A program made the position numbers and the translations under genes. The notes beneath the pieces are model-generated. The model did not search any database. It saw only the letters and a program-made list of their open reading frames with translations, and was not told the DNA's origin. A stretch of DNA of 42,767 bases from Proteromonas lacertae (taxonomy: Eukaryota), in contig NGBS01000017.1 in NCBI GenBank assembly GCA_002245135.1, positions 124,001 to 166,767 on the forward strand. The letters run 5' to 3'. This document shows, piece after piece, positions 8,103 through 42,767 of the stretch. The stretch's first letter is position 1; every line of letters starts with the position of its first letter.

Positions 8103-11100
8103 TTAAGGAGATTTTATACTCACACTATCATTAACATTTCTTCTACCACTTATATTTCTACTACTCACAGAATTATTCTTTGCTCGAGGAGACATTACAC
8201 TATAACTTTTACCAAACGCTTCTTCAAAAAAGAATTGTGGTTCAGATATTGTTGCCATTGCCATTTCACCTGCTTCAAGTATTTTTGGGGTTAAACGGAA
8301 ATCTACCTCGACTTGCTGCTGCTTTGGCTGATTTGTTTCTTTGAGTTCTAGAACCAGCAGAACTTCCACTTCTACTTCCACCTGCTGTTGAAGATCCAAA
8401 TGTTGATGATAATTCGGTTGTATATAAATACATTACTTTTGATCCAAATTGAACCAAGATTATCATAAATACACCGATTTCTATACCTAAACTTCTCAAT
8501 AACATCAAAGTATCAGTTTCACTAGACATTAAATAATCCAATGGAACTAATATCACACCCATAATTATCATAATAGCAATTGTCGCCATTAATGACATTG
8601 ATTCATTAAATTCAGCTGAAGCATTTCTCACACTCCATGCAAGTTTCGCACCCCAGAAGAATAATAGGAAAACAGCTACTAATTCAATTGCACTATTCAA
8701 ATAAAATAAATTAATAATAATAATAATAATATACACAAATGCTGTACTGGAAGTACATTCTCTCATATGAACATCATCTAAATAAGTCGAATAACCGCTA
8801 CTAAATGATAATGTCGGTTCAGATGGTGATACAATTTGCCATATAACTAAATACACAATTTGAATTGCTAATGTTAAACCAATCATTTTTAATAACATTG
8901 CATTTGATACTTTCACTTTCTGCAATTGTTTATTGTTAAACAATTTATGAATTCTCCATGCTTTACTAAACATAATACTAAATAATAAATCAATTGTTAA
9001 AGACAAACCCCATATTCTAATTGCACATATAATTTCATTATCAGCTAAGATTGTAAATACATCACCCATAACTGATAACAAAAATAATGAGATTAAAGCA
9101 TAATATAAAAACAAAGGACTTGCACTTTTGATTATTTTTGTATGTCGATAATAATATACCATTCCACTTACCAAGATACAACAAACTCCATTTATACAAC
9201 TGAAAGTAATAGATAAGTATCTATAAACTTCATTCAATTCATAAATTACATTATTCTTTGAGAATTGACATTGAGTATCATCTGCTGAAACATATGTCAT
9301 TTTACCTTCTACTATATACTCAATTCCTTGTTGTGGGAAAACTTGAATTAGTGATGTATCTGATAATTGGAAGATATAAATATCTTTTGAAAAATGATTA
9401 TTGTTCTCAGTTTTGATTGGACCAGAAGGACTATCATATGTTATATACTTCAAACTCAATTCAATATAATCATTACCAGGCCATTGACAATTACCACAAT
9501 TTGACATTGAATATTCTACCGCTTGTTTCCATGTGTAAATTGTACTATATGTATTTTCTAATATTTCATTTAGTTCAATAGAATCTTGATATTCAGCTGT
9601 CATTAAGTATTGAAATGCACCTGAAGCAGTGTTTGTAACAGTTGGTGAATATGATGTAACAACATAAGAACCAGTCAATTTCTTTATTACATCTTCACCT
9701 AAATCTAAAGGATCATATTTCATAAAGAATAAAACAGTGGAACTTGTGATTGATGATTGAATATAACCATTAATAAATTGAGTATTTTCACTAGCAAAGT
9801 ATAAGTTAATAATTGCTACACGATTCAACTTATCTAATTTTGTTTCTATATCTTTTAACATTTGTTCTACATACACTGAATTAAAGGGTGATAAGAATGA
9901 ATAACCAACTATTTCAATATGATCATTTTCATTATTAATATTTTCATTTACCTTATTAACTGATTTTTGTATTACATACAACTCAGTAGCGGATGAATTT
10001 CTATCACTTCCAACTACATATAATTTCTTTATTCCTAATGTCTTTATATAATCAATTAAAACATCAGATTTTTGATTGATATTTAATCCACCAACAACCA
10101 TATTCTTTTGGCATTCATAACCATCATCTCTTCCAGTAAAGAAGAATATTGAATTTTTATCTCTTATGTATCTACTTACTTCAGTTCTACATTCAGCGGT
10201 TAAACATCCAAACATTGTATTTGATTTTCCTATTTCATCAATCATTCTTGCATTTCTATAAGCATCAGAGATAGTAACCCAAGTATGATTAGCTGCAATT
10301 TCTCTACCTAAAATCCCTCCAACATCATTGATTTCTTTGACTATTAAATCGATTAGTAATGCATTATATTTCTCAGTTCTTCCGCCTAAATCTTTCTCAT
10401 GGAAGAAGGTAATAATGATTGGATTTGTATCATATCTTCTACCTCTATCTTTATTATAAAAATCACAAATCAAACCAATTTCACTTTCATTGTACTGATT
10501 ATAAATTGATGGTTTAAATGATTGTGTTGGTGACCAGTCCACAACTATTTCACCTATTGAATTAATCGTTCCACTGTATATTCTTCGATTGAAATTATTA
10601 TTTGGATTTACATCAACTGAGCCAGAAGGAGTTTCAACTGTATAATGATATAAATTAGTGATATCTTCATATAAGAATGAATTAGTTTTCTTAATCAATC
10701 CTTTCCAGAATGTTATAGCAGAATAAGCACTTTCATAATCTCCAATCACTTTGTGATCATCACCTATTTGTACATGAATATCTTTATTACAAGTTGGTGC
10801 TAATGTTGGAACTCCAACAGTATTTAATTCACTTTTACCTACAGATTCAAAGTATGAATCAAATGTCATAAAACCATTTAAACATTGTTTATTGTTATTG
10901 TTTGTAAATATTTTTTCTATCAAATTTTCATTGAATAATGAGTTGAGAATTGTGTAAGTTGGATAACTAATTCCATTTTGACATATTACTTCATAAAATG
11001 CTAGTATATCTTCATCATTTGTTAATATTGTAATAATATAACCTCCATTGGGTAATGCTCTTTGTATATCAGTTGCTAAACGACGAGTATTGGTTCTATC

Positions 11101-14100
11101 CATAATAACATTACCATTCGAAGTGATAATCAAATTCTTCATCTTTTCAGTCATTAAGTCAGAGATTTTATTTGCAAATTGATCAGCTGATCTTAGTATA
11201 AATGCACTGGAACTATATTCTAATAGTCTTCTCAACACTGCTTGAGTGATTTGAGAAGGATGTAAATGAGTTGATATAACATTCTGATAACAAGTATCAC
11301 CTAATGATCTCCCTAAGAAAAAGAAGAGTTTATTACTTCCAGTTAATATATCACCAATTCTCTCTAATGTTGAAGGTTTATAACCACCAAATATATAAGT
11401 ATAACGAGTATTATTGACTAATTTCAATAATTCATTTTCATAAATATCATCCGATGATTTTGTATCAATAACAGTGTAATTGATATAATTATCTAACAAT
11501 AATCCATTTCGATTAATATCACCAATTGCTGCGATTAAACTGTCAAAGATTGGAGTTTCAATTTCTCTATCTTCACCTGTCAAAGATAACATAATTAAGA
11601 TTGTATATGTTTGAACTGTATTTCCATCTTCTATATCTAAATTTGAAAAATCGCATTTCTTAAATACACCATTCACTGGTTCAAATGCTTCTGGAACAAT
11701 TGCATCAGTCGAATCATAGATTAAAGTACTTGTTTTATTTTCATTAAATTTCAATATTTTGGGTATTCTCGATAAGTACTGATTTACTCCAAAATATACT
11801 AATCCTTCTGGTGAATTGTATTTTACACTTCTTAAAGCAACTCTGACATTATTTCTTTCTACATTTGCTACATCTACATTCTCTTCTTTTTTATTTTTAG
11901 GTAAAGAATCTAAGGCAGTTTGCCATAGTTTAATTGAACTGTAAGTTCTAATCATAACATCTGATACATAAACATCTGAATCAATTCTTTGATATAATTT
12001 ATTCTTAAACTCCATATTAATATCAGAAGTATCATCAGGATTGTAGAATTCCATATATTCATAATTATAATAAGGTAACTTTCTCATATGTTGAGAATTC
12101 TCCATAATAATTACGTTGAATGGAATTCCATTTCCATTGGTTGCTTCGTTAATATTATCCATTAAAACACTGAATGAGTCTTCATATCCATAGAAGTATA
12201 TACAAACAGATTCTTCTTTCATCATTGCTAATTGAGATATAATCTCTCTTAAGTTGGAATTTGAAAATTCAACATCATTTACTTCATATTCAAATGTTGT
12301 AACATCTTCAATATTCATATTTTTAAGGTATTTCTCCACATATTTTGCATTATAATTATCTACATCACTATCAATGAATATCATCATTTTATCATAAAAT
12401 CTATTTCTTATAACATCTAATATCTTATCATAAAAACTCACATGTTTTACACCAACAAAGATTGGAGCATTACAATAGTTCAATTCCATTTCTAAAAGAT
12501 TAAAAAATATTAATTCATTTTCAGAAGCAATTAAACTATCAACTGCAGCAACACATTCACTTTCAACTGATCCAAATATAGCTAATGGATGATTCTCATT
12601 TATATAATCACTAATATATCTCATACAAATCTCCAAACTGCCTTGAGTATCATAAATATCAGTTTTTAATGAATAACCACCTATTCCTCCATTATCATTA
12701 ATTTCATTAGCTGCCATTTGGAAAATATCAACGTAACCTTCAGCATTTTTAGAGGTTGATAATGCAGCAATCAATCCAACTCTTTTTATTGCAACTTTGT
12801 ATTTATAACCAATCTCAGGTGTTCTTTCTGAAAATGAACATTGATATCCATAACTTGATGGAATGTTCCAATTCCAAGGAGAAGCACTTTGAACATCGTA
12901 TTTGCTATAAATAGTTTGATAAGTCAAGCCGTCTGGATTGTATCGAATCACAAAGAATGGAGCTGTAACGTAATTATTATCGTTCATTGTAATTATTCCA
13001 CTACCAACTTGGAATGATACTCCATACGATCCTTTTCTTACTTTTTCTGTATCAAATGAATCAGCCTTTTTCACAGCTTCAGCATATAAATGGACAGCAG
13101 AATAAGATGCTTCAAATAATGAAGTTGGTTTATCTAAACTAACATAATCTAATGCTTTATTTAAAAACTTCTCATTCTCTTCAGTTGGTAAATCATATGA
13201 GTATCTGACTATTTTATATATATTTTTTCTATCTTCAGCTGGAATTGTATCTGTTTCTTCAACTTCAAGGAATATATCAACAACAGCATACTTATCACTA
13301 TCAATATTCAATCTACTGTAATACTCCATAAAACTCTTAAATACTTCAATTGACACAAATGTTGAAATAATTATTCCACCTTCACTCATTTTAGATTGAA
13401 TATCATTGAATAAATTGTAAGTTATTTGGCTTGTTTCATTATAATTAAATGATCCAACTTCATTAATTAAACCATTTGCTTCACCTTTTATCATTGTTGC
13501 TAAATTCTTTGAATCTGGTTCATCTTCTGTAAGAATATAGTAATTATTCTCATAATCTACAACTAATAAAAACTCCATTAATCTTGTGATAAATTGATTA
13601 GAAACCATTGATGTATAAAATGTATTATAATCACATTCTTCACCAGCTGTAATTCTTGGGTAGTAGAACAATTTATTCGTTTCTACGGCTACTTTTTGTA
13701 CAGCATTCTTACAGACAGGTTCTGTACAACCAACATATGCGACAACATCTTTATCTTGTTTTACTTCATCCAATATACTCTCTAATTTACTAACATCACT
13801 ATTGAAATTTATAAATTTCACTAAAAGTCGATTTTCTTTGATTTTGTCACCATCATATAATTCTCTTAAAGCTGTCATAGCACCAAGAAGAGCTTTTTCA
13901 TGTGTTTTCTTATACATTCCAGCTGTAGCAAATACTAATACAATCTTCTTTACAGGAACATCAGTAACAATTCTTTCATTACGTAAATTACATTCTTTTA
14001 CTTCTTCATTATCTTCTAATACATTACCATAAGCTCTTTGTGGAATAGCAAAGGATGTTTTTTCAATTATTTCATATGAATAATCGTATGATAAAACATT

Positions 14101-17100
14101 TCCATCTTCATCATCTTCTTTTACTACTTTACTGCCTCTCTTTAGATACATTGGCATTGAAAATCTGTTATTTGAATTAAAATGGATTTTACCTAATACT
14201 GTATCTGATTCATGATCATATAAAGCATCTTTTATTCCTCTAAATGTAACTTCAGAGTTTCTAGAACAATCAGAAACTAAGTTTGCAAAAAGAAAACCTC
14301 TAGCAGTTGATTTACTAATAACAGGAATATAAGCAAATAATGAAGTAAATGTAGCTTTTATATCAGAATAAAGTTGATTTGATTCATCTTCAGCAAACGT
14401 ATCATAATAATAAGTTCCAACAGCTGCTTCACCTAATTTATAAATATCTAAATCACCCATATTTAAACACAAAACAGTATAAAGTGCGAATAACTGAGAT
14501 TGATGTAAAGATTCTATAAATGAAGACTTACTTACACCTTCTAACATTGAAACAATCAATGCACCATCTGGAGATAATCTTTCAATATAACTGACTGCTT
14601 CACTCATATCTTTGTTTTCTAATGGGAATTGTAAATATACTTCTGGTATAATATTGAAAGTATTTAAATCATACTTGAGTTTTTCAGCATAATAGTTAGA
14701 ATAAATAGTATCAGAATATAATAGAATCACTTTACCTGGATTTAACTTCATTATTGTTGGAACTAATGTATAATAAGTTGGATATCCAATTCCACCATAA
14801 AATCCATTTTCATGACATTCATTTGCTTCATAATCACGTGGGTAAAACAATAAACTATTCGTCTCAACAGCAGCTTGATGTAACACATCTCTTATATCTG
14901 AAGTCCATCCTCCGAAGAATAAAAACATATTATATCTCTTTGCATAATCAATCAGTATACTCCTAGTTTCATTTAATGTAGTTCCTTCTACAATAATAAG
15001 CATATTTGCAGAAGTTCCTTTTATTCCACCATTTTCATTGATATGAACAAATGCAGCATAAACAGATTCAAAAAATAGAACACCATCTGCTAAATACAAT
15101 CTATTCTTAGGAATGACAATACCAATTCTAGTAAATGGAGCTTCAAATTGATCAACTTTTCTATCTTTCCAATCACAGATAATATAATTTTGTCTATTTA
15201 ATGTAACACGATATGTTTCTCCTCTCCAATCTCTACTTACGTATTCTAATAGTTGAGTATCTCCATCTTTATTGATTGTACCAAAGAATATTGTTTGCGC
15301 AACATGATTACCAGAATCAACAGCTATTTTACCCATCACTGATTCTATTTCAACTTTATAAATAGAATCGAACAATTGAGTAGTATTATCATAATTAATA
15401 ACTGAAGAAAACAATGACAAAACCCATGCAGTAGAATCATATATTAAAATATCAGAATAGGTTGGTTGTGAACCACCAGTTAATTGATTATATAATTCTT
15501 TAAACTCAACATTATGTTTATCAGATGGATCATAAATATCAGAAGTGTAGATATAATGACCTTCAGAATGAACAGCTGGTTCAAATTTACGATGAGTATC
15601 ATCGATTAAATAGATTGTATATGTCTCTGCAATGTTTATTGTATCTCCATATTCTTCATTGAAATATTCATAAAAATATTTGAAAAACATCTCAGAATTT
15701 TTCTTTTGTAGCATTACCAATATTACTCCTCCATTTGGCAATACATTCTCAAATATTCTACATAATCCAATTACTTGTAATCTTATATTAGTTTCATCTT
15801 TAGTAATATCAAGTTCAGCAGTATGTAATAATTCTATTTTCATCTCATTAAATACAGAATTAATCAAATTAACTCTATTTTTATAAATCTTGTTATTAGA
15901 ATGGACAAAAGTGAAATCTCGAATTGATTCTCTCATAAACAAATGGAATAGATATGGAATAACATCTTGAGATGGTGATGTTGACATATATATAGTTCTT
16001 TGGGAACAATCTTCACCTTCATTAAAACCAGTATAAACTAATAACAAACTTAACGCTTCAATTGTTGGTTGCATTGCTTCTCTTGATGTTGGGTTACAAC
16101 CGCCAATAAATACTTTAAATCCTCTTTTATATAATGTGATTAATACAGAAGCAGCTTCTTTTTCTGTTGTTGGACAGTCATAAAGCTCTGAAACGACTGT
16201 ATTTCCATTAATTCCACCATCATAATTGATCTGTTCTATTTTAGATAAAGCTAAAATGTATTTATTAAAACCATCATCACTAAAATCTAAGAAATATGCA
16301 ATTTTGATTGGATTATATTCTCCTAATTTACCAGAATCACCTGTTTTATATGAAACAGTCATATATTTCATATCATTTTCAACAAAATAATATGGATAAG
16401 GCATTATTGGAAAGACAGTATTAACTACAAGTTCAAACTTATCATAATCAACACATTTCAATATCTTAGAATATGAACTTGCCCAATTAGAAGTAGTTAT
16501 TTTCCTTTTTCCTGAAGGAGAATCAATTTCAACCAAATATAATTGGTTGATTATTTCATCTGAATTTAAAACTTGAATATTTGGCACAACAGCTTTTAGG
16601 AATAAGAATATATCATACATAAATACACCTTCAGTTGTAACTAATGTTTCTTGTCCTTTATAACCTGTTATATCACTTAACATCTTTTTATTTGCAGGAG
16701 TTTCACTGAATCTATAATACGAAATAATACCATAAGCATTTCTGAAATTATCATCATAATATGAATGAGTTCTATAATCGAATATGAATAATGGATAAGT
16801 TGTATTATCAATTGATTGATTATTATATTTTTCCACAAAAGTTAAGGTATAAGGATCAGTGAATAAAAACAAAGCAAATTTATCACTGTTTGAAGTTTCT
16901 GTTTTGATTTCTTTTGCTATATCTTCAGCATTTGTTGAATTTAGTTCTTTAATGAATAATATATCTCTTTTGAAATATGTACTATAAGCTTCTAATAATG
17001 CAAGACGATTAAGATTCAAACTATATATTATATAAATATATAAATATAAATACTCAGTTGTTACATAAACAATACCAATTTGATTATATCTCGTATAAGC

Positions 17101-19954
17101 ATAATATAATGGAATAGAAACAGTTTGATGAGGTAAAAATGCCATTTGAATAATGAATTTATAATTTCCATTACCTTCTGGTGCACTAATTGCAAATATA
17201 ATCACTCCCAATTCTTCGGTTTTCTTATAAACTGCTTTTCTTTCAGCTTTAGTATCAGTACCAATGAAGCATAATATATTATCATATCTCTTTACATATT
17301 TTTCATATATTCCTGCAATTGTTGTTGGATCTCCTTTATATTCTGTTTGTAGCACAACTAAATCTCTTCCATTTATTCCTCCATCTTGATTGAATAAATC
17401 AATATTCAACTGCAATGTTTGTAATCTTGCCTTACCTGCATCAGTTGATAAATCAAATAACACACCAATATAATAGAAACTATAGGTTGATACTCCATTC
17501 TTATCTAAATAAATAATAATGAATATTTAATTATATATATACTCTTCTTCCAATTACAAGTCCTTTCTCCATCAATGAAAGTATTTTCAATTCTGTTAAA
17601 AGCATCTTCAAATACTAACAAAGAAGCACCTGTAGCATTCAATTCAACAATTCTAATTCTTCCTATACCATATCCATTATAATATATCTCAAATGGACCA
17701 GCAATAGCATTTTCTAAAGAATCATGATAAATATATTCCAAATAATCAGAAGGCTTATAATAAGATCTTATCGTTACTGCATTTCCAAATATATTAATCA
17801 TATTTAAAGCTAATCCCATAGCATTAGTAAGAGGTAAATCATATCCACATTGCGCTTTCATATATTCTCTAAATCCAATTAATAAATTATATTCGTTACT
17901 ATCTTTATCATCATAATAATGTGTTAAATATTTCACATTTTCCATTTTATTAAAGCCAATATTTCGTGCAATTGCTTCATTGAGAGTAAATGACAAAATT
18001 GTATAATTCTTATTAGCTACAATATTCTTATTAATTAATCTTTCAAATAATTTAATCTGATAATCTTGAGTAGCAGTTATAATAATAAAACCACTCTTTA
18101 AATAATCCAAAATGTTCTTATCAATCACTTTATCAAGGTAAATATCATCAGTTTGAACTAAATAAGACACTGAAATATCAGTAGTTATATATCCTTCACC
18201 ATTCAGTTTATTAATCAAAGATTCAGTCACTATCCTTCCATAATGATCACCGCTGGAGACGATTACATATTGTGGATTTTCAAATGTATTTAAATATTGC
18301 ACAGTACATTGTATATAATTCATTGCCATTGGATTTACATATATTACATTCTTTAAACATTCATCTCCTTCGCTTGGACTTAGATAGAAGAATTGAAAAT
18401 CTTCTTCTACCAACAGTTTTGCTAATTGCATTCTTTCTTCTGCTGAACATACTAGAATGCCTGAATGAGCATCGAATCTTTCTATATTGTCTATTATTTC
18501 ATCACTTACTTCTCCCATAGTTTTATCATCCATATTGACGAATAATTGTCGAATATGTTTACCTGCTATTCCTCCATTTACATTCACTCTTTCAATCATA
18601 TATAAAAAGAATTCTCTTAGATATCTATTTTCCGAATTTTCAATTCCTTTGATTCTCTGAATAAACATCACTATTAGTGATGAATAATCAGATAATCCTT
18701 CTTTATGATTGAGAGTAAAATTACAAGTTTGATTACCTATTTCACCCATTATATTGGTTGGTTCAAATGATGTTGAAATCGTTATTGTATAAGATGGAAC
18801 ATATGGATCAGATCTAGCACCATCTTTTTGAAATAAATGTTCAGTTGTCGATGTATAGTGATTTTCTAACAGCACTAAATATCCACCAGCATATGGTATT
18901 TGCTTATTATACATTACTGTTAATAAGTCAAGGATATTAGTGGATTTCAATTGGTCTAATGCGTATAATAACATATTCATTATTCCCAATCTATTTACAA
19001 AATAATATAATAAAAATATATTTAAATAATATACATATAAACTTCTTCATATTGATTTTCTGAATTTAAGAAAGATTTATATTTGTTTTGATATTCTACA
19101 CTATATTCATTACTACTATTAAGATATTCATCATAACCTCTTAAATGATAATTCTTTTCATTATTTGCTGCTGTTTCAAATGTACCTTGATCAAACCCAG
19201 AGGTTAATACAATAACTGGATAATCTTCATTATTCAAAGAATATGTATTTACTTTTAAATCTAAAAATTTACTATACATATCTTTATTCCAGGAAGACCA
19301 GTATGTTACAACCGTTTTCTTTGAATCTGTAATGTTCTGAAGGTATTCTTTAAAAACATCTTCAGTTAATTCGATATGATGATAATTTCCCATTTGAGAT
19401 TGACCAAAATAGTATGAAGCTGGAAATATTCTTTCAGAAATAAACTCATCGATTGGTCTACTATCACCTATAAAGCCTACTGCTTCTACTTTTGCTGACA
19501 TGAACTGAGCAACTATTGATTTATATAATCAGATTATTTTCATACGAGTTTCGATATTGTTAATCATTGAATTTCCCATAATAAAATTTTTGGAACATCT
19601 ACCTTCATTGTAAGTGTTTAAACACCAGATAAATATTCCCTTTTCAGTTAGATAGTCATCGACTGTGCTATTCATTACTTCAGGAGTGCAGGTTGTATAA
19701 TAGAAAGACGGCTTAGGATTAGCAACAGCATTAAGAGTTTTAATCAACTCTTCTGGAGAGTCAGCATATTTATACTCTTTGAATTCTATTTCTATATCAC
19801 CACTTGCAGGTAAATGATCAGTCATATATTTATTTACCATATTTAGTCTATTCAGATCATCTGCAGGGTCTACAATTGTTCTAGTGAGATATCCTATATC
19901 TAACTTAAATGAATTTACGGAATATAAAACAATAAATAATAACAACACTTTCAT
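8103..19954 (-). CDS. Giant class C (GABA-B/mGluR-type 7tm_3) GPCR with nine tandem UrtA/AmiC-like periplasmic-binding (Venus flytrap) domains, ~3,870 aa
   Basis: Signal peptide MKVLLLFIVLYSVNS. ORFs 19529-19954, 19022-19501, 17505-18989 and 8275-17463 join in frame through introns 19513-19545, 18991-19034 and 17505-17542. In-frame introns 17021-17053 and 8693-8734 are read through by the ORF track; a probable intron 8270-8306 extends the tail to 8103 (otherwise stop at 8275). IN.xGG(I/L)xG repeats every ~1.18 kb. 7TM motifs: IIKSASPLF, C.IRIW, FSKAWRIHKLF, VRNASAEFNES. Confidence 0.88.
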
Positions 19955-32079: not shown

Positions 32080-34475
32080 TTAGTTAATATATTTTCTTCT
32101 ATACAATCCAACTATTATTCCATCATCTAAACTTGTAATACGAAACGCATCAGTTTGAGGGCCTTTTGGGAATAAAAACAACTTCCCACCACATACATCA
32201 GAAACAACACATCTATTCTTTTCTTTCATATACATCAGCAATCTATCATATCCTTCTCTATCTGCAGTAGAATATGGCATCATATAAAACAAAATATGAG
32301 GAGTTGAACATTGAGCTACATTAATAATTGCATTGAAATTTGTTCTTAATGGAAAATCAATTGTACTTGGAAATCTAACCATTAATGGATCGATTTGTGC
32401 TTGAAGTAAAAAAATACTTGCAGTACAAAAGAAATCATTTTGTTTACACAATCTACCACTCCAATATACTTGTTTTGGATCAACATCATATTTTCTCAAC
32501 ATATTTTGTTCATTATTATTAAATTGATGATCTTGAGGTTGTTGTTGTTGTGAATATTGATAAGAAGGCATTGGAGGAATGCTAATACTATTATTATTAT
32601 AATTATTGTATGAAGGAGAAGCATTTGAAGTAGATGGTTGAAAAGATGATTGTGGATTTGAATAATAAGAATTATTATATGAAGGTTGTTGTTGTTGTTG
32701 TTGTGATTGTGAAAGTAGATATGATGGTGGAGGTGATTGATTATAATATGATGACGACTGTTGAGGAGATTGAGATATATGAGATGGAGAATTATTATAT
32801 CTTGGTGGACTTCTATCTCTTCTTTTCCATTCATCATCATCATTATTATTATTTCTATTAAATGAAGATGAAGATGGAGATGAACCCCATTCATTATTAC
32901 TGCTTCTTCTACCACTATTATTTTGATTATCTTTTTCTGGACATTCTCTTGCAAAATGACCTGTTTTATGACATATAAAACATTCTCTTCCACCACTTCC
33001 ACCACCTCTTCTTCCAAAACCACCTCTTCCTCCTCTGTCTCTAGAATCACTTCCAAATCTACTACTACTACTACTACTACTACCCCATGAATCATTACTA
33101 AATTTTCTATTACTGCTTCCCCATGAATCATTTGATTTTTGATTTCTATCACTTGAACTTGCCCATCCATTATTATCATCATTATTACTACTATGTTTAG
33201 AATCTTCAATTGGATGTTTCCATTCATTATTATCATCTTCTTTTGTTTTACTATTTCCCCAACTACTTGATCCATCTCCCCAACTGCTTTTATTCTCCAT
33301 AGGTTTTGATTTTTCTTCTTCTTTTACTGTTGTTGCTATTGTTTCAGTTTTTGATTCACCCCATCCACTTTCATTATTTCCCCAATCATTATTGTTACTA
33401 TTTCCACTATCATTCCATAAATCATCAGGATTAACCTTCAGTTTTTCTTCTTCTTCTTCTCTTTCATTTCTTCTTCCACCTCTTCCTCTTCCTCTTCTTC
33501 CACCACCTCTTCCTCCTCTTCCACCACCTCTTCCACCCCTTCTATTATCACTTCTATATTCAGAATCAATGAGTTTTTCTTCTTCTTCTTTCTTCTTAGC
33601 TTCTTCTATTTTACTACTATCACCCCAGCTATTATCTTCATTTCCCCAATTATTGTCATTATTATTATCACCCCATAATTCATCAACATTCACTTTAGGC
33701 TTTTCTTCATCTACTCTTTTATCATTATTACTTCTTTCTCTATTATTTCCATTATCCTTACTTGTGATGTGTTTTTCTTCTTTCACTTTCTTTTCTTCTT
33801 TTTTTGATTCTCCCCATCCACTTTCATTATTTCCCCAATCATTATTATTACCACTATCATTCCATAAATCATCAGGATTTACTTTTGTTTTTTTCTCTTC
33901 CATTTCTCTTTCATTTCTTTTTCCATCTCTTTCTCCTCTTCTATTGTCTCTATTTTCATTTCTATTCTCACAGTATGATGGCTTTTCTTTTTTTTCTTTC
34001 TTCTTAGTTTCTTCTTTTTTACTACTATCACCCCAGCTATTATCTTCATTTCCCCAATTATCATTATTATTATTATCCCATAATTCATCAACATTCACTT
34101 TAGGCTTTTTTTCATTATTATTACCATCTTTGAAATTACTTCCTCTTTTGTATGACGGTGTACATTTCTCATATGAATCTTCACGTTTAGGTTGAGATTT
34201 CATATACTTTGGAGATGATTTGCTTTTATCAATTTGAGGAGTTGAGTTGACTGTAGAACATTCATTAGGAATATCTCTTAATTCACCTTCTTCGACTATT
34301 ATAACTATATTTATTCAAATATACGTTCATTATCTTCAACTTTTTTATTTTTATCTAATCCATCACTATTTAATCCGGTGTGATTATTGTCATTTTCAAT
34401 TACATTATTATTGCAACTTGTATCTACTGCTAATCCTTTGTTTTGTTCTGTTTCAGATTTGCCTTCAGTTTCCAT
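32080..34475 (-). CDS. WG/GW-repeat, RGG, CCHC zinc-knuckle and C-terminal SPOC-domain protein (~790 aa)
   Basis: ATG 34475; intron 34296-34324 joins in frame to ORF 32080-34203 and creates LEEGEL. About 15 WG/GW motifs, RGG boxes, CFICHKTGHFARECP, and SPOC-like VYWSGRLCK...FPSTIDFPLRT...RLLMYMKEKNRCVV...KLFLFP. Confidence 0.8.
33350..34110 (-). repeat. Intragenic duplication of a two-part WG-repeat module
   Basis: KPKVNVDELW..NNWGNEDNSWGDSSK at ~34015-34110 and ~33608-33705; KVNPDDLWNDSGN.NDWGNNESGWGESK at ~33802-33885 and ~33350-33440. Copies are near-identical at DNA level. Confidence 0.9.
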
Positions 34476-34957: not shown

Positions 34958-35015
34958 GGGGCCGATGGGGGGATGCCGGCGGGTGGAGGACTAGACTATA
35001 GTATAGACTAGAATA
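34958..35015 (+). repeat. Left arm of (sub)terminal inverted repeat
   Basis: GGGGCCGATGGGGGGATGCCGGCGGGTGGAGGACTAGACTATAGTATAGACTAGAATA is the reverse complement of 42711-42767 apart from one extra C. Confidence 0.95.
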
Positions 35016-35131
35016 TTATAAAATGTTATAGAAGAGGATTTGAAGTGTCTATTACACTATAGTTATGTATTTAGATCAAAAGAGGAAAAACAAAAGTCAT
35101 CTCATAAAGAGGAATTATCATTATCATCTAA

Positions 35132-36553
35132 TTAATGTGCACCTTCCAATGTCTTGATTCTGTCTTCAATAGGCTTCAATCCTTCTTTAACTTTGCTAAC
35201 ATCCTGCTGTATTGCATTAATTTCATCTTCATAATCATCTTTGGCTTTTTTTGAATCTATAAACTGTTTCTTGTAAGATGCTTTGTCAGGGAAGTTCTGG
35301 ATATCTTTAGAATTGTACTGCTCTTTATACTTATGCATCTCTTTGAGTAATTCATCCATTCGAGCTGATTTCTTGTAAGCCTTGTTCATTTGATTTTTCT
35401 TGTATTTCATTAATTCTGTCTTCAGGTACTTACAGGTGTTGATGGACAGGATGCTGATGTACTTTGTTAAAGATCCTTTGTCGTACCATTGATTAATACT
35501 GCACTTCTTGTTCAACAGCATCTCGAACAGTTCTGAATCTGTGTACCTCTTTGAAGGATCTGGTGGAGGAATTTCAGCTACTTTTCTCTGCTTTTTCTTT
35601 TCATCCTCCTTTTTTACTGACTGAGGTCTTTGCCTCTTCTTTGCTACAATTACTTTTTCATCATCTGAATCTGTATCACTTTCTGATACTATAATCTGAG
35701 GAATATCCTCCTTTTCAATTTCTTTTACTACTTCTTTGACTTTCTTCAATTTGCTTAGATCCTTTGGAGGAATTGTTTCAGGAGAGGATTTAGATATCTT
35801 TTTGACATTAAACTTATTCAGTATTGATGTTTTTTGTAACACCTCTTTAATAGGATCTGATTTTGGTTTTGGAGGAAGCTCTGGAGGTGGTGGTTCTTCA
35901 AAATCATCATCAGGTTCAATAATAGATGCATGTTTTTTTTGCCATTCTTTTTGACGTTTAAATACATTTTTTGCATGTTTAAGTTTTTTAAGGTGGTTTA
36001 ACTGTTTCTCTCTTTCCTTTTCATCTAGTGATACTATATCCTCTTTATCACTTTCTTCAAGATCTTCATCCCTGATTTCTTTAAGTTCTTTGAGGAATTC
36101 CTCTTTTTCAAGCATCCATTTCTATGTATATATAAATAATCAAATATACCTCAGGACTTTTCTTACTTTCCTCTTTTTCACTTTCCTCCATTTCCTCCTT
36201 TTCCTCCATTTCCTCCTTTTCCTCCTTTTCCTCCATTTCCTCCTTTTCCTCCATTTCCTCCTTTTCCTCCTTTTCCTCCTTTTCATAATGTTTCCAAGTC
36301 TATTGCAAGTATAATACATACAAAATATACTCCAGCAGGATTGTCATTTAGTTGATTAATAAATGCACCAAGTTGAGAGTATAATCCTCTCACAACAGCA
36401 TCATCCTCCTTGCTCCATTTTTCACGGGGGTAAATTGGTTGACTTCCCAAGAACTTAGTAAAAGTCCTACATTATATAAATAACAAAATATTACCTAGTA
36501 GCTTCTGCTGTAGCAACTGTTAATTTCAATATCTCAGTAGTATTAATTTCCAT
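35132..36553 (-). CDS. Element-encoded spliced hypothetical protein: charged, proline-rich middle, coiled-coil C-terminus
   Basis: ATG 36553 (an in-frame ATG also lies at 36574). Three ~28-31 nt GT..AG introns join MEINTTE..., TFTKFLG...REKWSKEDDAVVRGLYSQLG..., the (EEK/EEM)n exon and ORF 35132-36115 in one frame. Confidence 0.7.
36183..36286 (-). repeat. 9-bp coding minisatellite GAGGAA(AAG/ATG), ~11 copies
   Basis: Plus strand (TTTCCTCCA/T)n, encoding EEK/EEM repeats. Confidence 0.9.
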
Positions 36554-36768
36554 ATATTTGAAAATTCTAACCATAAAAATGGCAGGAAAACTCAGAATGA
36601 AAAGTAACGGCAAATTTACTTAAAAAGTAACGGTCGATTATGATTGGAGGATTTTCCTTCGTTACAAAAACCGTTATTTTTTACGAAAAAAGAGGATTTT
36701 CGAAACCCAAAAAAGGAACTTAGAAAAAAATCATTAATTAGGATTTTAAAATTACTCTATAACATTTT

Positions 36769-37098
36769 CTAAATTGTATCAGAATATTTTGACGGAGGAT
36801 AGTGTAATCTTCCACTGCTTGTTCTATATGTCTTGTTTATGGAGGATAATTCCTCATTTTCTTCAATAATATCCTCTTCCTCATCATCCTCTTTTTTATT
36901 TGTGCTTCCCAAATTATGTTGAATTTCCTCAACAACTTCAATGACTTTAGGAGGACAATATGCTTTATAAGTATAATATACAATTTTGATGACTTCTGTT
37001 ACAACCCAAAGGATGACATATACTAAGAGGATTCCTATACTTTCCTTGATTTCCTCAACATTTGTCTCTAAGACAGTCTCATTATTTTTTGATAACAT
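36769..37098 (-). CDS. Element-encoded small single-pass membrane protein
   Basis: 109-aa ORF with hydrophobic stretch IGILLVYVILWVVTEVIKIVYY and an acidic then basic tail. Confidence 0.6.
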   Translation of the reverse strand: MLSKNNETVLETNVEEIKESIGILLVYVILWVVTEVIKIVYYTYKAYCPPKVIEVVEEIQHNLGSTNKKEDDEEEDIIEENEELSSINKTYRTSSGRLHYPPSKYSDTI

Positions 37099-37164
37099 TT
37101 TGTAATTATGAGAGTATAATATACAAAAACAACAAGAAAATTAAAAATGAAATTAATTATTGTT

Positions 37165-37569
37165 TTATTCATCATCATCATCATCATCTTCATCTAAAGG
37201 ATCATATAATAAATGAAGCTGTAAATATCTTCTTTGTCTTACGTTAAGATTTCCACGAAGCAAAATTGGAGGATTAGGCGATGGATTAAAGATTAATTCA
37301 GGTAAATCAAGTTGCATAGATCTCATTCCGGTTCCAATAAACCATAATTCTGGTTCATCATTAACATCGCTAGTACGATATGGTACTACATGAATCCATC
37401 TATCTCCACCCATAATAATATTCTGTAATACTTGAGGATTAAATTTGATATACCATATAATCTGATATGTATTTCCTCTATCTATTACCGCATACCTGTA
37501 TAATTTGCAAACTACAGGTCCAACATTATTTGCTTTTAATGAAAAAGTATTAATTCTATATCTAGGCAT
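37165..37569 (-). CDS. Element-encoded hypothetical beta-rich protein with acidic tail (~134 aa)
   Basis: True ATG at 37569 (MPRYRINTFSLK...); ends DEDDDDDDE*; no family recognised. Confidence 0.6.
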   Translation of the reverse strand: MPRYRINTFSLKANNVGPVVCKLYRYAVIDRGNTYQIIWYIKFNPQVLQNIIMGGDRWIHVVPYRTSDVNDEPELWFIGTGMRSMQLDLPELIFNPSPNPPILLRGNLNVRQRRYLQLHLLYDPLDEDDDDDDE

Positions 37570-37639
37570 TTTGAATATATATATATATATATATTCTAAA
37601 AACAACAAGAAATATGAAAATAAAGATTAATATTAGAAT

Positions 37640-38521
37640 TTATATTTCCATTTCCTCACTATCTATTTCCTCATCATCATCAGGTTCCTCATCCATTGCA
37701 GAAGGAATGACAACATCAATCTTTCTTTTCTTTGGAGCTGGTTTAGGACATAATTCAACTTTTACTTTTCCACTACTTGAATCTTCCTCTTTAACATTTC
37801 TGTTTCTTTTGTTGTCTTTGTTTATCATAATACTCCTTCTTTTTTAAGCGGCATCTTTCACAACTTTTGTTTTTGTCACCGTTTGGCTTTGTTGCAAAGT
37901 TCTCTAAAGGAAGGATTTTGTTACATGTAGAACACTTTTGTGATCCTTCTGGTACTGGAGCTGATTCCTTCTTCTTTTTAGGAATAGGAATGGCTTTATC
38001 ATCTTCTTCCTCTTCATCATATAACCAAGAGGATTTTAACTTTATCCATTCACTAGCATCACAATCCTTTCCTGCAAACCTAGCTACTTGAACATTAGTA
38101 AACTTCACAGAATAATATCCTTCCTGATCCTCTTTTGGTTTTTCTAATTTCATCTCAGATACATGTCCAATGAAAGTTAACCATCTATTTAAATGAGGAG
38201 GAAGGTAATCACTCACTAATCCTCTTGCAGATTCTAACTTAGGAATATTTCCCATTTCTAACATTTGCTTATCACCCATGATTTCCTCACTAATTCAGCT
38301 TCATACTTTGGTTCAGGATTACTTTCCATTTCATCAACATTGTTTTCCTTACACCATCTCTCATAATCCTTAATATAAGGCTTTTCATATTCACTTTGTG
38401 ATACTGGTTCAGTTTCACAATTTTCTAAATCATCTTCATCACTAGTTATAGTAGAGTTATCCTCCTCAGCCTCCTCTTCTACATACTTTTTAGAAGTAAA
38501 GTATTTTTTACCAGAACTCAT
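37640..38521 (-). pseudogene. Element-encoded C4 zinc-finger protein with NLS, split by two frameshifts
   Basis: ORFs 38258-38521, 37791-38279 and 37640-37828 overlap briefly and read as one protein: acidic N-terminus, KCSTCNKILPLENF...SCERC, PAPKKRK, acidic tail. Confidence 0.6.
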
Positions 38522-38729
38522 GATTTTTTAGAAGTTAAGTTTTTAATAATAGAAAAATAGCAAGAAAATTGCAAATAAAAAAGTAACGATTTTTAAGTAG
38601 ATTTTTAATTATCCAATCAAAATTTAGTATACGTTTGTATTGACCAATTATATTAATTGACCAATTATTTTAAAGTATATTCATTTTTTGTTTTCTTTTT
38701 TAGTTTTGAATTTTCATAAGTATAAAATC
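38522..38729. promoter_or_regulatory. Divergent promoter of the element with CCAAT boxes and AAAAGTAACG motif
   Basis: Lies between ATGs at 38521 (minus) and 38730 (plus). ATCCAATCA ~38612, TTGACCAATTA twice (~38640, ~38657), AAAAGTAACG ~38579. Confidence 0.55.
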
Positions 38730-41700
38730 ATGAATAAAAGGAAGAATACTGATAAGCAGAAGAAATATGCTTTAAATGCAAAAACTCATTTATTAGAAAA
38801 GATGTTTAGAAAATGAGGATAGTACTTCCCAATATTTCATTAATGCAACTAGTAAAAGAAGGAAAATAAGTGAATCCTCCTATATGAGGAATTTAAATAA
38901 TAATCCTCGAGTACATATTATAAATCCTGATTATGGAATGTATTTTGGTGGAGGAGATGATGATATGGATGATGATAGAATTCATCCTCCAAGAGGAAAT
39001 TTAGAGGAAAGAATAAAAAGGTATGAATTAGAAGGACAATCCTCTGAAGGAGTAACAAGGAAGTACGTTACTAATTTAAAGGATATTCATCTTCTTACTC
39101 CAGAAGATTATTATAATTTCATTGTTGATAACACAGATGTTGCTTTAAGAATAAGTGAAATAGCACATGAAATGAAAAATATTAAAGTATACTTTGTATT
39201 TTGGTATGTTTATACTTCTTCGGAAGATGAATCAGGTGAGGAAGTATCCTTATTTCATAATACAAGAAATATATTAATAAATGAGTATGATAGTCCTGCA
39301 TCAGTAGCAGCAAAGATGCGTTCCTTATTTCATTCTATTAATGAGGATGACTTTTCTCCTCCAGAATCTGGTTTAATATTCCAATATATGGATTTAATGG
39401 AAACTCATATTAATCAATACCAAATTATGGCAGGAGCAGGAGGAAATTATCATATACCTGATATATTTAATAATAAGTATTGTTTAGATCCTTGTGAAAA
39501 TAAGGATAATGATAATATGGATTGTTTTTGGAGAGCAATTAATTCCTGTTTAAAAAAAAACATTTACCTCAAATACAACCTAGTAGCGATTTTATTACAA
39601 TACCAGTAGCTCCTGTTAATAATCCTGATATAGATAAAGTAGAGCAAACTTATGATTTAAACATAAATGCATTTGCAATTGATGAAGAGGAAAAGGACAA
39701 ACCTAAAATCCTTCCATTAAGATATAGCATAATTGATAAGAATGTTGGTAATCCTGTTATTAATTTATTATTCCTTCCTAATAATAATGATACTACAGAT
39801 GAAGTAATTACAGGACATTATTGTGCAATTAAATCCTTAAATCAAGTATTTAGCTTAGTTTTTGGTGTAATATTTAAGAATAAAACAAGTCCTTTGGTTT
39901 GTCCTTATTGTCCCTTTTATACTTATAATGCAAAATCATTTGTAAATCACAAAACAGTAAATTGTCAAAATCCTGATAATGTAATAAGGATATTTCCTGA
40001 TAAGGATAGTGAGGAAGCTTTTATGAAATTTGAACATTCTAACAGAGAGGATATGATTCCTGTTGTTATTTATTACGATACAGAAGCATACATTGTCCCT
40101 ATTGATAATTCTCAGGAAAAGACAAAAACATTAAGATCCTTCAAAAATGAACATAAGTTAAAATCATATTGTTTATATATTGAAAGTAAAATTCCTCAAA
40201 TTAAATCTACAACTATTATGAATGTGAAGATATCCGAAGATGAAAATTTAGAAAAAGAATTTATGGAGGATATCATGACAGTATATAAAGATGTAAAACA
40301 CTTATATAATATAATAAACTTATATCCTAAAGATTGGGATCAAAATGAGGAAGATTTAGCTATTCATATGAGTAAAACTGTTTGTGATTTTTGTAATAAA
40401 CCTTTTACTCCTTTTGATCCAAAAGTCCTCCATCATAATCATTTCACTGGAAAGTACATTGCTTCAATTCATTCCAAAGAGAACTTATCAATTAAAGTAA
40501 AAGGATACAAGATTCCTATAATTGGTCATAACGCTATGAGATATGACCAACATTTCATCATTAGAGAACTTGCAGAAATTGCTAAACAGACTGGTTTAAA
40601 TTTGGATATCCTTCCTTCTACTGATGAAAACTATAAAGCTATATTCTTTGATAGATTAATGTTCATTGATTCATACCAATTCCTTTCTGAAAAATTATCT
40701 AGTTTAACAGAGGATTTAAAGATAACAGCTTTAGAGTTAAATTGTAAAAAGGAAAAGTTTAAAGTCATTTATGATAACTTTCCTGAGTTAGATGAGGAAA
40801 TCATTGATAAGTATCTTCTTCAGAAAAACTTCTTTCCTTATGAATGTTGATTGTTTGGAAAAATATGATAATCAATTTAAGGATTTGAAGATTCAGGATT
40901 TCTATTCAAGTTTATCCAATTCAACAATAACAGAAGATGAATATAAGTTTGCAATGGAAGTGAATAACATTTTGTTTGAAGGAAAAGCTTCTATAGGAGA
41001 ATATTGTAATTTCTATTTAAGTATTGATGTTTATATCCTATGTTCAGTATTTGAGGATTTTAGACAAAACATCTTTAATCACTTTCATATTGATCCTTGT
41101 TGGTATGTTTCAATTCCTAGTTTATCCTTGGATTTGTTCTTGAAAGAAATTCATGAACCTGAAATATATGATTTCATCCTTAATGGATTATATGGAGGAT
41201 TATCCTATATAGGAAAGAGGAAAGAAGATGCTAATAATTTCTATATGAAGGATTATGATCCAAAGAAACCTTCAAAGTTTATTGTTTATCAGGATATGAA
41301 TTCCTTATATCCTTCAGTAATGTATTTATGTAAACTTCCTATAAGGAATTATCATCTTTATTGTTATGAAGATCCTGGTTGTCCTAAACTTCATGAGATA
41401 TTAGATTCTACTAAATTCTATGATAAGAATGATTCCTTTGAAACTACAGGATATATGTTAGAAGTGATATTGAACCTATTTCCTATTATAAGGAGTATTT
41501 AAGAGAATATCCTATTCTACCTTCAAGAAGGAAGATTAGCTATGATGAATTGTCAGATATACAAAAAGAAAAATTAGAAGTATTATACTCTCAAAAAAGG
41601 ATGATCAGAAAAATCTGATGTTCATAAATATGTTTCCTCTGAAAAGTTAGTTACTGATTTATTGCCTAAGGAACATTATGTCATCCATTATCAGAATCTC

Positions 41701-42659
41701 AAATTTGCAGTTGATCATGGATATAGAGTAACAAAAGTATATAAAGTACTAACTTTCTTGGAAGTAAACATATGTCTAAACATATTGATCAATTAAAGGA
41801 TATGAGAGTTCATGCGAAGGAAATGCATCAAACATCTACTGCTAATATTATGAAGAATTACTTAATTCACTTTATGGAAAAACTTTAGAAAGAGTTGATA
41901 AGAGGAGAAGTATCAAATTAGTAGTGTCAGAAAATCAAGCAAGAAAAGCTATTAGAGATCCTTGGTTGATAAGATAGATACTATTCACGGAGATTTGAGA
42001 TTAGTACATTATCATAAAAAGATGTTCAAAATTAATAAACCTATTCAGATAGGTATGACAATCCTTGCTCTTTCTAAATTATTAATGCAACAGTATTGGT
42101 ATGATGGAGTATTACATTACAATTCACCAAAGATGTTAGACTCTTAATGACAGATACTGACAGTCTCCTCTTTTCTGTAAAGACTAAAGATATATATTGA
42201 ATTTCAATCATCTTCAAATATATAGATGGAAGTAATCTGAATATGCCTCCTTTCAGTAATTACTACAAATGGGATTCATTATCATGTAAACCAGGAACAT
42301 TAAATAAACTCAAGTTTGAGGAACAGGATGGTAAGAAATTCTATGTCATCACTAAGTTTAGAGGATTGAAATCCAAATGTTATTATTATGAAAAGGAATG
42401 TGTTAATGATGGTACACTCAAATCCTCCAATAGATGTAAAGGATTAATAACAGCTATAGCAAGTAAGATGACAGGAGATGATTATACTGAAATGGTTGAT
42501 GGATATGTTTCTAAACAGAAGTTTGGTATTAATCATATTAGAAGTAGAAATCATCATATCTATACTGCTTATGAAGAAAAGATAGGACTTACATATTTTG
42601 ATGATAAAAGATACTTTGAGGATGATTATGAAACAGTTCCTTATGGATACAATAATTAG
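38730..42659 (+). pseudogene. Protein-primed family B DNA polymerase (Polinton/adintovirus type), with ~8 frameshifts and one in-frame stop as sequenced
   Basis: ExoI YYDTEA, ExoII HNAMRYD, FIDSYQFL, QKNFFPYE, ExoIII YLSIDV, GLYGGLS, motif A QDMNSLYP, motif B NSLYGKT, KPIQIGMTILALSK, motif C MTDTDSL, KSKCY, FDDKRY...TVPYGY*. Also a C2H2-like finger (CPYC...HKTVNC) and an endonuclease-VII-like insert (CDFC...HHNHFTGKY). Confidence 0.9.
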
Positions 42660-42710
42660 ATTTCCTCTAATATTATATACTGATTCTATATTCTTATTTT
42701 TGTTTTAGTC

Positions 42711-42767
42711 TATTCTAGTCTATACTATAGTCTAGTCCTCCACCCCCGGCATCCCCCCATCGGCCCC
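42711..42767 (-). repeat. Right arm of (sub)terminal inverted repeat, truncated by the window end
   Basis: TATTCTAGTCTATACTATAGTCTAGTCCTCCACCCCCGGCATCCCCCCATCGGCCCC is the inverse of 34958-35015. Confidence 0.95.

Follow-up and report, generated by a model that had tools for sequence, protein, structure and literature searches.

Current models of how G-protein-coupled receptors of class C (class C GPCRs) are activated assume one flytrap domain per chain. Outside the animals, receptors of this class are known to carry a variety of binding domains of bacterial type, among them BMP, OpuAC, SBP_bac_1, LysR_substrate, and PBP_like_2, and the available text of the respective studies gives ectodomain lengths that reach about 1,600-1,670 residues (PMC3251606, PMC5168858, PMC3971589; for the variety of domains, see also PMC5447177, PMC5608401, PMC12716839). 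For Proteromonas lacertae, whose GC content is 27%, 116 class C receptors, 182 type I binding-protein domains, and seven G-alpha proteins are given in Table S5 of PMC12129017. The receptor gene described here lies on the minus strand of a 42,767-nucleotide stretch of P. lacertae DNA (contig NGBS01000017.1; hereafter the window, to which all positions refer), where it is a single gene extending from 19954 to 8103. It encodes a signal-like N-terminus, nine repeats of approximately 390 amino acids (R1 to R9), and a seven-helix domain of the 7tm_3 family. Judged by sequence, the ectodomain is an array of nine type I binding-protein domains related to the bacterial urea-binding protein UrtA, and the membrane part is of the class C GPCR type. 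The architecture is real, conserved, and unusual, and the ligand is probably not urea.

Four open frames on the minus strand tile positions 19966-8275; the longest of these runs for 3,083 amino acids without a stop, and the part from R3 to the seven-helix domain is one open frame. Splicing is deduced from the sequence and from homologous database proteins, which are designated by P numbers in the following. Five AT-rich GT-AG introns of 33-44 nucleotides (nt) are predicted, namely, intron 1 (19513..19545, 33 nt, with an in-frame stop inside), intron 2 (18991..19034, 44 nt), intron 3 (17505..17542, 38 nt), intron 4 (17021..17053, 33 nt), and intron 5 (8693..8734, 42 nt), the last two being in frame without a stop and hidden inside the long open reading frame (ORF). 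When aligned to homologues, all five junctions are free of gaps at the junction, introns 1-4 against both P0001 and P0003, and intron 5 against P0001, P0002, and P0006. Counted from the ATG at 19954, the joined product has 3,829 amino acids. Two alternatives, a series of separate genes and a run of ORFs arisen by chance, were considered and rejected because R3 to the seven-helix domain is a single open frame and a whole homologue of 3,886 amino acids exists; the initial annotation of one spliced minus-strand gene is thereby borne out. Its signal peptide is likewise predicted for residues 1-15 (19910..19954), based on the hydropathy plot, which has a single N-terminal peak besides seven C-terminal helices, and on P0001 and P0003, whose N-termini are similar.

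The end of the gene is less straightforward. The long frame terminates at 8275, while the tail of the homologues follows this frame to the motif NPK and then the frame ending at 8103, which is 59% identical to P0002 over 27 amino acids. The cytoplasmic tail (8103..8418) is thus found in two frames in the assembly. The switch is a one-base shift at a run of five A (8282..8286) and not an intron; a sixth intron, at 8306-8273, by which the stop at 8103 would be reached, was rejected because residues conserved in the homologues would be lost. Either one extra base is present in the assembly at 8282-8286, which is possibly an assembly error, or the gene would be truncated there by a real frameshift. 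The predicted protein comprises 3,886 amino acids when read across the frameshift (stop 8103) and 3,829 as assembled (stop 8275). The gene end at 8103 that had been assigned initially agrees with the tail of the homologues, but the long frame itself stops earlier, and the one-base shift is required to reach it.

Eight of the nine repeats were scanned as single domains, and all of these exceed the Pfam gathering cut-off for Peripla_BP_5 (PF13433, UrtA/AmiC-like) with 50-108 bits. These are R2 (17494..18710, 50 bits, with intron 3 near its end; also matched by TIGR03407), R3 (16330..17493, 71 bits, containing the in-frame intron 4), R4 (15151..16329, 77 bits), R5 (13966..15150), R6 (12805..13965, 108 bits), R7 (11629..12804, 60 bits, and 66 bits with Peripla_BP_6), R8 (10441..11628, 88 bits), and the membrane-proximal R9 (9247..10440), which ends in a short stalk preceding the first transmembrane helix (TM1). 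R1 (18711..19909) holds introns 1 and 2 and is the most diverged domain. Scanned as separate exons it gave no family match; aligned with the profile of R2-R9 by hhalign, it reached a probability of 97.4% (E 1.5e-11, 331 columns), with the reversed alignment and ten of ten column shuffles all at or below 1.1%. The IN..GG motif is found where it had been placed before, at 18575, 17380, 16218, 15030, 13848, 12690, 11505, and 10320.

The best NCBIfam model for all eight scanned repeats is TIGR03407 (UrtA), with 51-112 bits; its curated cut-off of 492.75 is reached by none of them. With R5 and R6 as queries, sequence searches of the PDB gave matches to UrtA and AmiC, among which animal flytraps were absent at E 0.1. 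R6, the best sequence match to UrtA albeit with a degenerate pocket, matched the entries 7s6f, 8hic, and 7s6e with E about 1e-20. ANF_receptor matches two of the eight scanned repeats only, in both below Peripla_BP_5. The Pfam scan revealed no NCD3G cysteine-rich domain, and the layout of mGluR, CaSR, and T1R, in which ANF is followed by NCD3G, is not present. An origin of the repeats from ANF domains is accordingly not supported by the profile and PDB scores, the trees having contained no animal flytrap sequences. When the repeat profiles were scored against 29 proteins, cyanobacterial UrtA ranked first for seven of the eight and P0052, a eukaryotic protein with at least three domains, for R4; LivJ/LivK ranked last for all eight. 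A two-cysteine signature, consisting of the motif EGxEC and a C-terminal W...C(D/N)W extension, was present in 79 of the 80 cyanobacterial loci and absent from all ten other bacterial proteins tested. Cyanobacteria may hence be the donor group, with the caveat that the cyanobacterial set had been fetched with a chytrid query whose patterns already included this extension. Both the terminal conserved cysteine and that of the EGxEC motif are present in R1, R2, and R4-R9 and absent from R3, which suggests a disulfide within each domain having the pair. The linkers between the repeats are short, and the ectodomain is acidic, with one to four glycosylation sequons per repeat.

The seven-helix domain (8419..9246, with the in-frame intron 5 inside) matches 7tm_3 with 127 bits against a cut-off of 33.5. 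It is the best-conserved part of the protein, being 50-65% identical to the homologues; the basic K-x-W-R motif of TM3 (KAWR) and the acidic motif of TM6 (FNES), the roles of which in class C receptors are treated in PMC3727952, are present. The best match in the PDB by sequence is GABA-B2 (E 1.6e-14). A structural model of R9 plus the seven-helix domain, with a mean predicted local distance difference test score (pLDDT) of 74.8 and mostly 80-90 in the R9 portion, combines seven helices with a flytrap fold and a stalk strand, and its second outer loop contains a hairpin; the best fold matches are again GABA-B receptors. It is the architecture as a whole that determines this match, which is silent on the origin of the repeat. 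A model of R8 plus R9 (pLDDT 50.8, predicted template modelling score 0.42) is uninformative on domain packing. The domain content proposed initially, that is, nine repeats of the UrtA/AmiC family rather than ANF domains, followed by a 7tm_3 domain, is in summary supported by these comparisons.

Using the C-terminal third as query, five proteins were retrieved among 6,792 candidates, and one more in a second search. When two of the homologues served as atlas queries, the matches were limited to generic 7tm_3/ANF clusters. P0001 is a whole protein of 3,886 amino acids with the same layout of nine Peripla_BP_5 stretches plus 7tm_3; P0002, P0003, P0004, and P0006 are partial homologues. Repeat order is kept in P0001-P0004 and P0006. 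The six versions, comprising the window protein and five homologues, are 38-58% identical over R6-R8 and may be orthologues from different species or partly paralogues. Within the window protein, the repeats share 11-19% identity among themselves, yet R2-R9 each pair with the P0001 repeat at the same position with a support of 100 (Shimodaira-Hasegawa-like approximate likelihood ratio test, SH-aLRT), from which it follows that the array is old and has not been homogenised. Identity to P0001 climbs toward the membrane: R1 has 27%, R9 has 53%, and the seven-helix domain reaches 65%. The outer repeats diverge fastest (27-35% versus 42-53% for R6-R9), and R9 is the most conserved repeat (52-57% to homologues).

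In UrtA, eight residues are strictly conserved, namely, W120, S122, Y141, Q144, E146, Y190, N246, and S274, of which Q144 and N246 accept the NH groups of urea and Y190 binds its oxygen (PMC10392092, in the text available). From R1 to R9, 0, 2, 0, 2, 4, 1, 2, 0, and 0 of these eight are kept in the MAFFT alignment, and 1, 2, 1, 2, 4, 1, 2, 1, and 1 in that made by hmmalign. The full set is thus found in none of the nine repeats, and the maximum is four in R5 by both methods. Urea sensing by the nine-repeat receptor is unlikely because no repeat keeps all eight residues, and the urea- or amide-binding function put forward in the initial annotation is not supported by the pockets. Pocket chemistry differs between repeats, being acidic in R5, marked by conserved arginines in R9, and aromatic to hydrophobic in R8, and R6 and R9 have a conserved CxxxxC at the W120/S122 site. 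The best candidate for a ligand-binding domain would be R5. At its UrtA pocket positions, the equivalents of W120 and E146 (W1634 and E1660), an aspartate at 144 (D1658), and an asparagine at 274 (N1782) are invariant in five of five sequences, with an acid at 246 (residue 1756) in all five. Invariance in these five sequences accordingly extends to four of eight pocket positions, where the background is 12% (uncorrected binomial p 0.011); in R1-R4 and R6-R9, pocket conservation is not above background (R8 p 0.35, R9 p 0.44). A cationic nitrogen compound, for example an amine, an amidine, or a guanidinium, would fit such a pocket, in which W120 and E146 are kept, Q144 is replaced by D and N246 by D or E, and Y190 is gone, because the NH-accepting positions have become carboxylates and the oxygen-binding tyrosine is lost.

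Combinations of UrtA-type domains with 7tm_3 are found in further eukaryotes. The dinoflagellate protein P0005 provided a canonical UrtA-type domain as query; 1,962 matches of 701-2,000 amino acids were obtained with it, and among the 120 listed, eight contain 7tm_3 (P0052, P0057, P0059, P0060, P0065, P0067, P0069, P0081). Five of them are from chytrids (Blyttiomyces sp., Gorgonomyces haynaldii, Phlyctochytrium planicorne, P. bullatum, Dinochytrium kinnereticum), and two more group with chytrid proteins in the tree. A metagenome scan yielded five loci, among them L090, a relative of P0052. All eight urea residues are present in the outer domain of seven of the listed fusions and six of them in that of P0069; the inner domain of all eight holds none or one. 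On this ground, P0057, P0059, P0060, P0065, P0067, P0081, and P0052, with their intact outer pocket, are candidate urea-sensing GPCRs. Against P0052, the seven-helix domain of the window protein reaches 81.6 bits, whereas its score with the other seven fusions does not exceed 19.9, and the stalk is common to the window protein, P0052, and L090. Canonical eukaryotic UrtA-type domains form one group with SH-aLRT values of 91-96 in four of five trees and 51 in the fifth. The simplest reading of these comparisons would be an expansion from a receptor with two or three domains, accompanied by loss of the canonical pocket; independent fusions of an UrtA-type domain and 7tm_3 may have occurred instead. 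The view that acquisition, amplification, and fusion took place in the lineage of the window protein is not supported by these comparisons, given the tandems in chytrids and other eukaryotes and trees that cannot place the repeats. In the tree with LivJ/LivK as outgroup, every degenerate domain is drawn to the root. In mixture-model trees of single repeats, calculated without R1, R3, R4, R7, R9, the degenerate domains of eukaryotes, and five other rows, R6, R8, R5, and R2 sit on branches of 6-10 changes per site in three different places, none of them inside the proteobacterial UrtA/AmiC group; the placement is unstable.

UrtA-type domains also occur in tandem in proteins of other kinds. P0027, P0029, P0030, P0032, and P0050 combine two such domains with a glutaminase domain (PF04960), P0027 and P0029 grouping with dinoflagellate sequences in the tree. 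The dinoflagellate-type proteins P0005, P0025, P0026, and P0028 contain two to four tandem UrtA-type domains, in three cases with Ephrin_rec_like repeats, and a C-terminal region that has no 7tm_3 match. Many bacterial fusions (within P0031-P0144), some with two copies, link the domain to histidine kinases, Ser/Thr kinases, cyclases, HEAT repeats, or NB-ARC/ATPase modules; because of these partners, the UrtA-type domain can be said to serve signalling already in bacteria.

Taken together, the protein would best be explained as a class C, GABA-B-like receptor and small-molecule sensor with nine tandem UrtA-related domains, one or a few of which would likely bind ligand, while the others would likely serve as spacers and as a relay toward the membrane domain; a probability of roughly 0.45 is assigned to this reading. 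As in GABA-B, TM1 and the second outer loop would receive the movement from R9 and its short stalk, with activation of a heterotrimeric G protein as the presumed result. The array would have grown long ago from a receptor of two or three domains such as P0052 or L090, with an intact outer and a degenerate inner domain. Several observations weigh against this sensor. The signal in R5 is weak, with p about 0.1 once nine repeats are considered, and pocket positions are uncertain in alignments of 20% identity, the two methods disagreeing at several columns in R4, R7, R8, and R9. An explanation is lacking of how a ligand five domains away from the membrane would move the seven-helix domain, the TM7 motif PK of which is SK in the window protein, P0001, and P0002. 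The trees do not join the window repeats to the eukaryotic canonical domains, and since they leave these repeats on very long branches and at unstable positions, what speaks for descent from a P0052-like receptor would be the similarity of the seven-helix domain and the stalk. Finally, Table S5 of PMC12129017 lists no G-alpha in eight Blastocystis isolates, in which class C receptors also number zero.

If the host were Blastocystis-like, G-alpha might be absent, which would favour G-protein-independent signalling by a protein derived from a class C receptor, and with GABA-B2 as the best solved match of the seven-helix domain, a silent partner of another receptor can be envisaged. GABA-B itself is a heterodimer of unequal partners. 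Both variants are very unlikely, however, as the membrane domain is the best-conserved part of the chain and keeps its TM3 and TM6 motifs. The counts given for P. lacertae and for Blastocystis in the cited table also speak against a chain without a G protein, G-alpha and class C receptors being found together in the former and both absent in the latter. Short introns and a low GC content would suit a relative of Blastocystis, but in view of these counts, an opalinate stramenopile distinct from the eight isolates would be compatible as well. A rather doubtful reading, although the least so among the alternatives, regards the ectodomain as a long stalk or adhesion surface whose repeats would have lost small-molecule binding and that reaches through the cell coat and contacts a macromolecule, a cell, or a surface, the seven-helix domain reporting contact or tension. 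The ancestral pocket is kept in no repeat, the outer repeats change fastest, and the acidic, sequon-bearing ectodomain with its conserved cysteine pairs would be in line with such a role; the conserved pocket residues of R5 would be unexpected in a pure spacer, though, and the repeats stand in one fixed order in each of the five homologue clusters, the parts covered giving no sign of homogenisation or of a changed copy number.

A further alternative is the multi-ligand sensor of the initial annotation, taken without urea, as an integrator in which several repeats would bind different metabolites and their occupancy would be summed into one G-protein output. For this, it can be argued that the repeats are hardly alike and yet each is held in place across the homologues, and that pocket chemistry varies from repeat to repeat. 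It is nevertheless judged unlikely, considering that pocket conservation rises above background in one of nine repeats only, that R6 and R9 carry the CxxxxC at the W120/S122 site, and that the inner domain of the two-domain relatives is degenerate. Similarly unlikely is a broader scenario, in which a scattered eukaryotic receptor family would have been built on cyanobacterial-type UrtA, the short chytrid forms being urea GPCRs and the nine-unit chain, its extreme member, having several re-tuned pockets that read different metabolites and feed into a single seven-helix domain.

The window itself is AT-rich and eukaryotic, with a GC content of 23-33% per kb. According to the Pfam scan, the neighbouring genes encode an XPB helicase, ORC3, Mob1, a Myb protein, a carbamoyltransferase, and a BEACH/WD40 protein. 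The ORF at 32080-34314 contains low-complexity repeats, a zinc knuckle, and a SPOC domain. GC-rich inverted repeats (34958-35023 and 42703-42767) form the two ends of an element of approximately 7.8 kb (34958-42767), the right repeat coinciding with the window end. The element includes a DNA polymerase gene of type B (organellar/viral; Pfam E 2.7e-9) that is distributed among several frames, several ORFs that gave no Pfam match, and a tandem array of a 9-nt repeat at 36151-36302; it looks like an insertion of the Polinton or linear-plasmid type.

With a conserved chain of nine flytraps, it must be asked whether the distant domains signal by way of the inner ones and, if so, in what manner; the repeats lend themselves to expression and screening one by one. 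The chytrid two-domain receptors with all eight urea residues offer testable candidates for urea-sensing GPCRs and a simple model of relay in tandem. With 7tm_3, another membrane domain, and glutaminase, a bacterial transporter domain has been reused in eukaryotes with different outputs. Neither an UrtA-type tandem ectodomain of a class C receptor nor a ninefold array was found in the literature searched, which covers architecture figures and supplements in part, and a brief prior mention is possible. Bacterial binding domains on class C receptors as such are known. No paper on the chytrid receptors with two or three domains was found in the literature; they are represented by database proteins, some of which are labelled by NCBI as periplasmic-binding-domain proteins.

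Compared with known systems, the window protein resembles GABA-B in the best sequence and fold matches of its 7tm_3 domain and in the short stalk that links flytrap and TM1 in place of an NCD3G domain, but GABA-B has one domain of the ANF_receptor type, whereas the window protein has nine of the UrtA type (Peripla_BP_5). With the bacterial-type class C receptors of non-animals it shares the fusion of a periplasmic-binding-protein domain to 7tm_3; the text available on those receptors refers neither to UrtA-type domains nor to tandem copies, and the ectodomain of the window protein, with about 3,500 residues, is longer than those reported. The surface protein EhVFT of the protist Entamoeba histolytica is comparable in having a flytrap nearer to bacterial than to animal binding proteins, but it is anchored by glycosylphosphatidylinositol, has no seven-helix domain, and no tandem array is mentioned in the text available (PMC12965686). 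Cyanobacterial UrtA (PDB 8HIC, 7S6E, 7S6F; TIGR03407; PMC10392092) belongs to the same fold family and has in common with the repeats the EGxEC motif and the C-terminal W...C(D/N)W extension; in contrast, the repeats are only 20-25% identical to it, do not have the set of urea residues, and are found outside any ATP-binding cassette transporter. The fusions of chytrids and other eukaryotes combine the same pair of domains in tandem with a degenerate inner domain, yet they possess two or three domains, one of them with a near-canonical urea pocket, while the window protein possesses nine domains and no canonical pocket.

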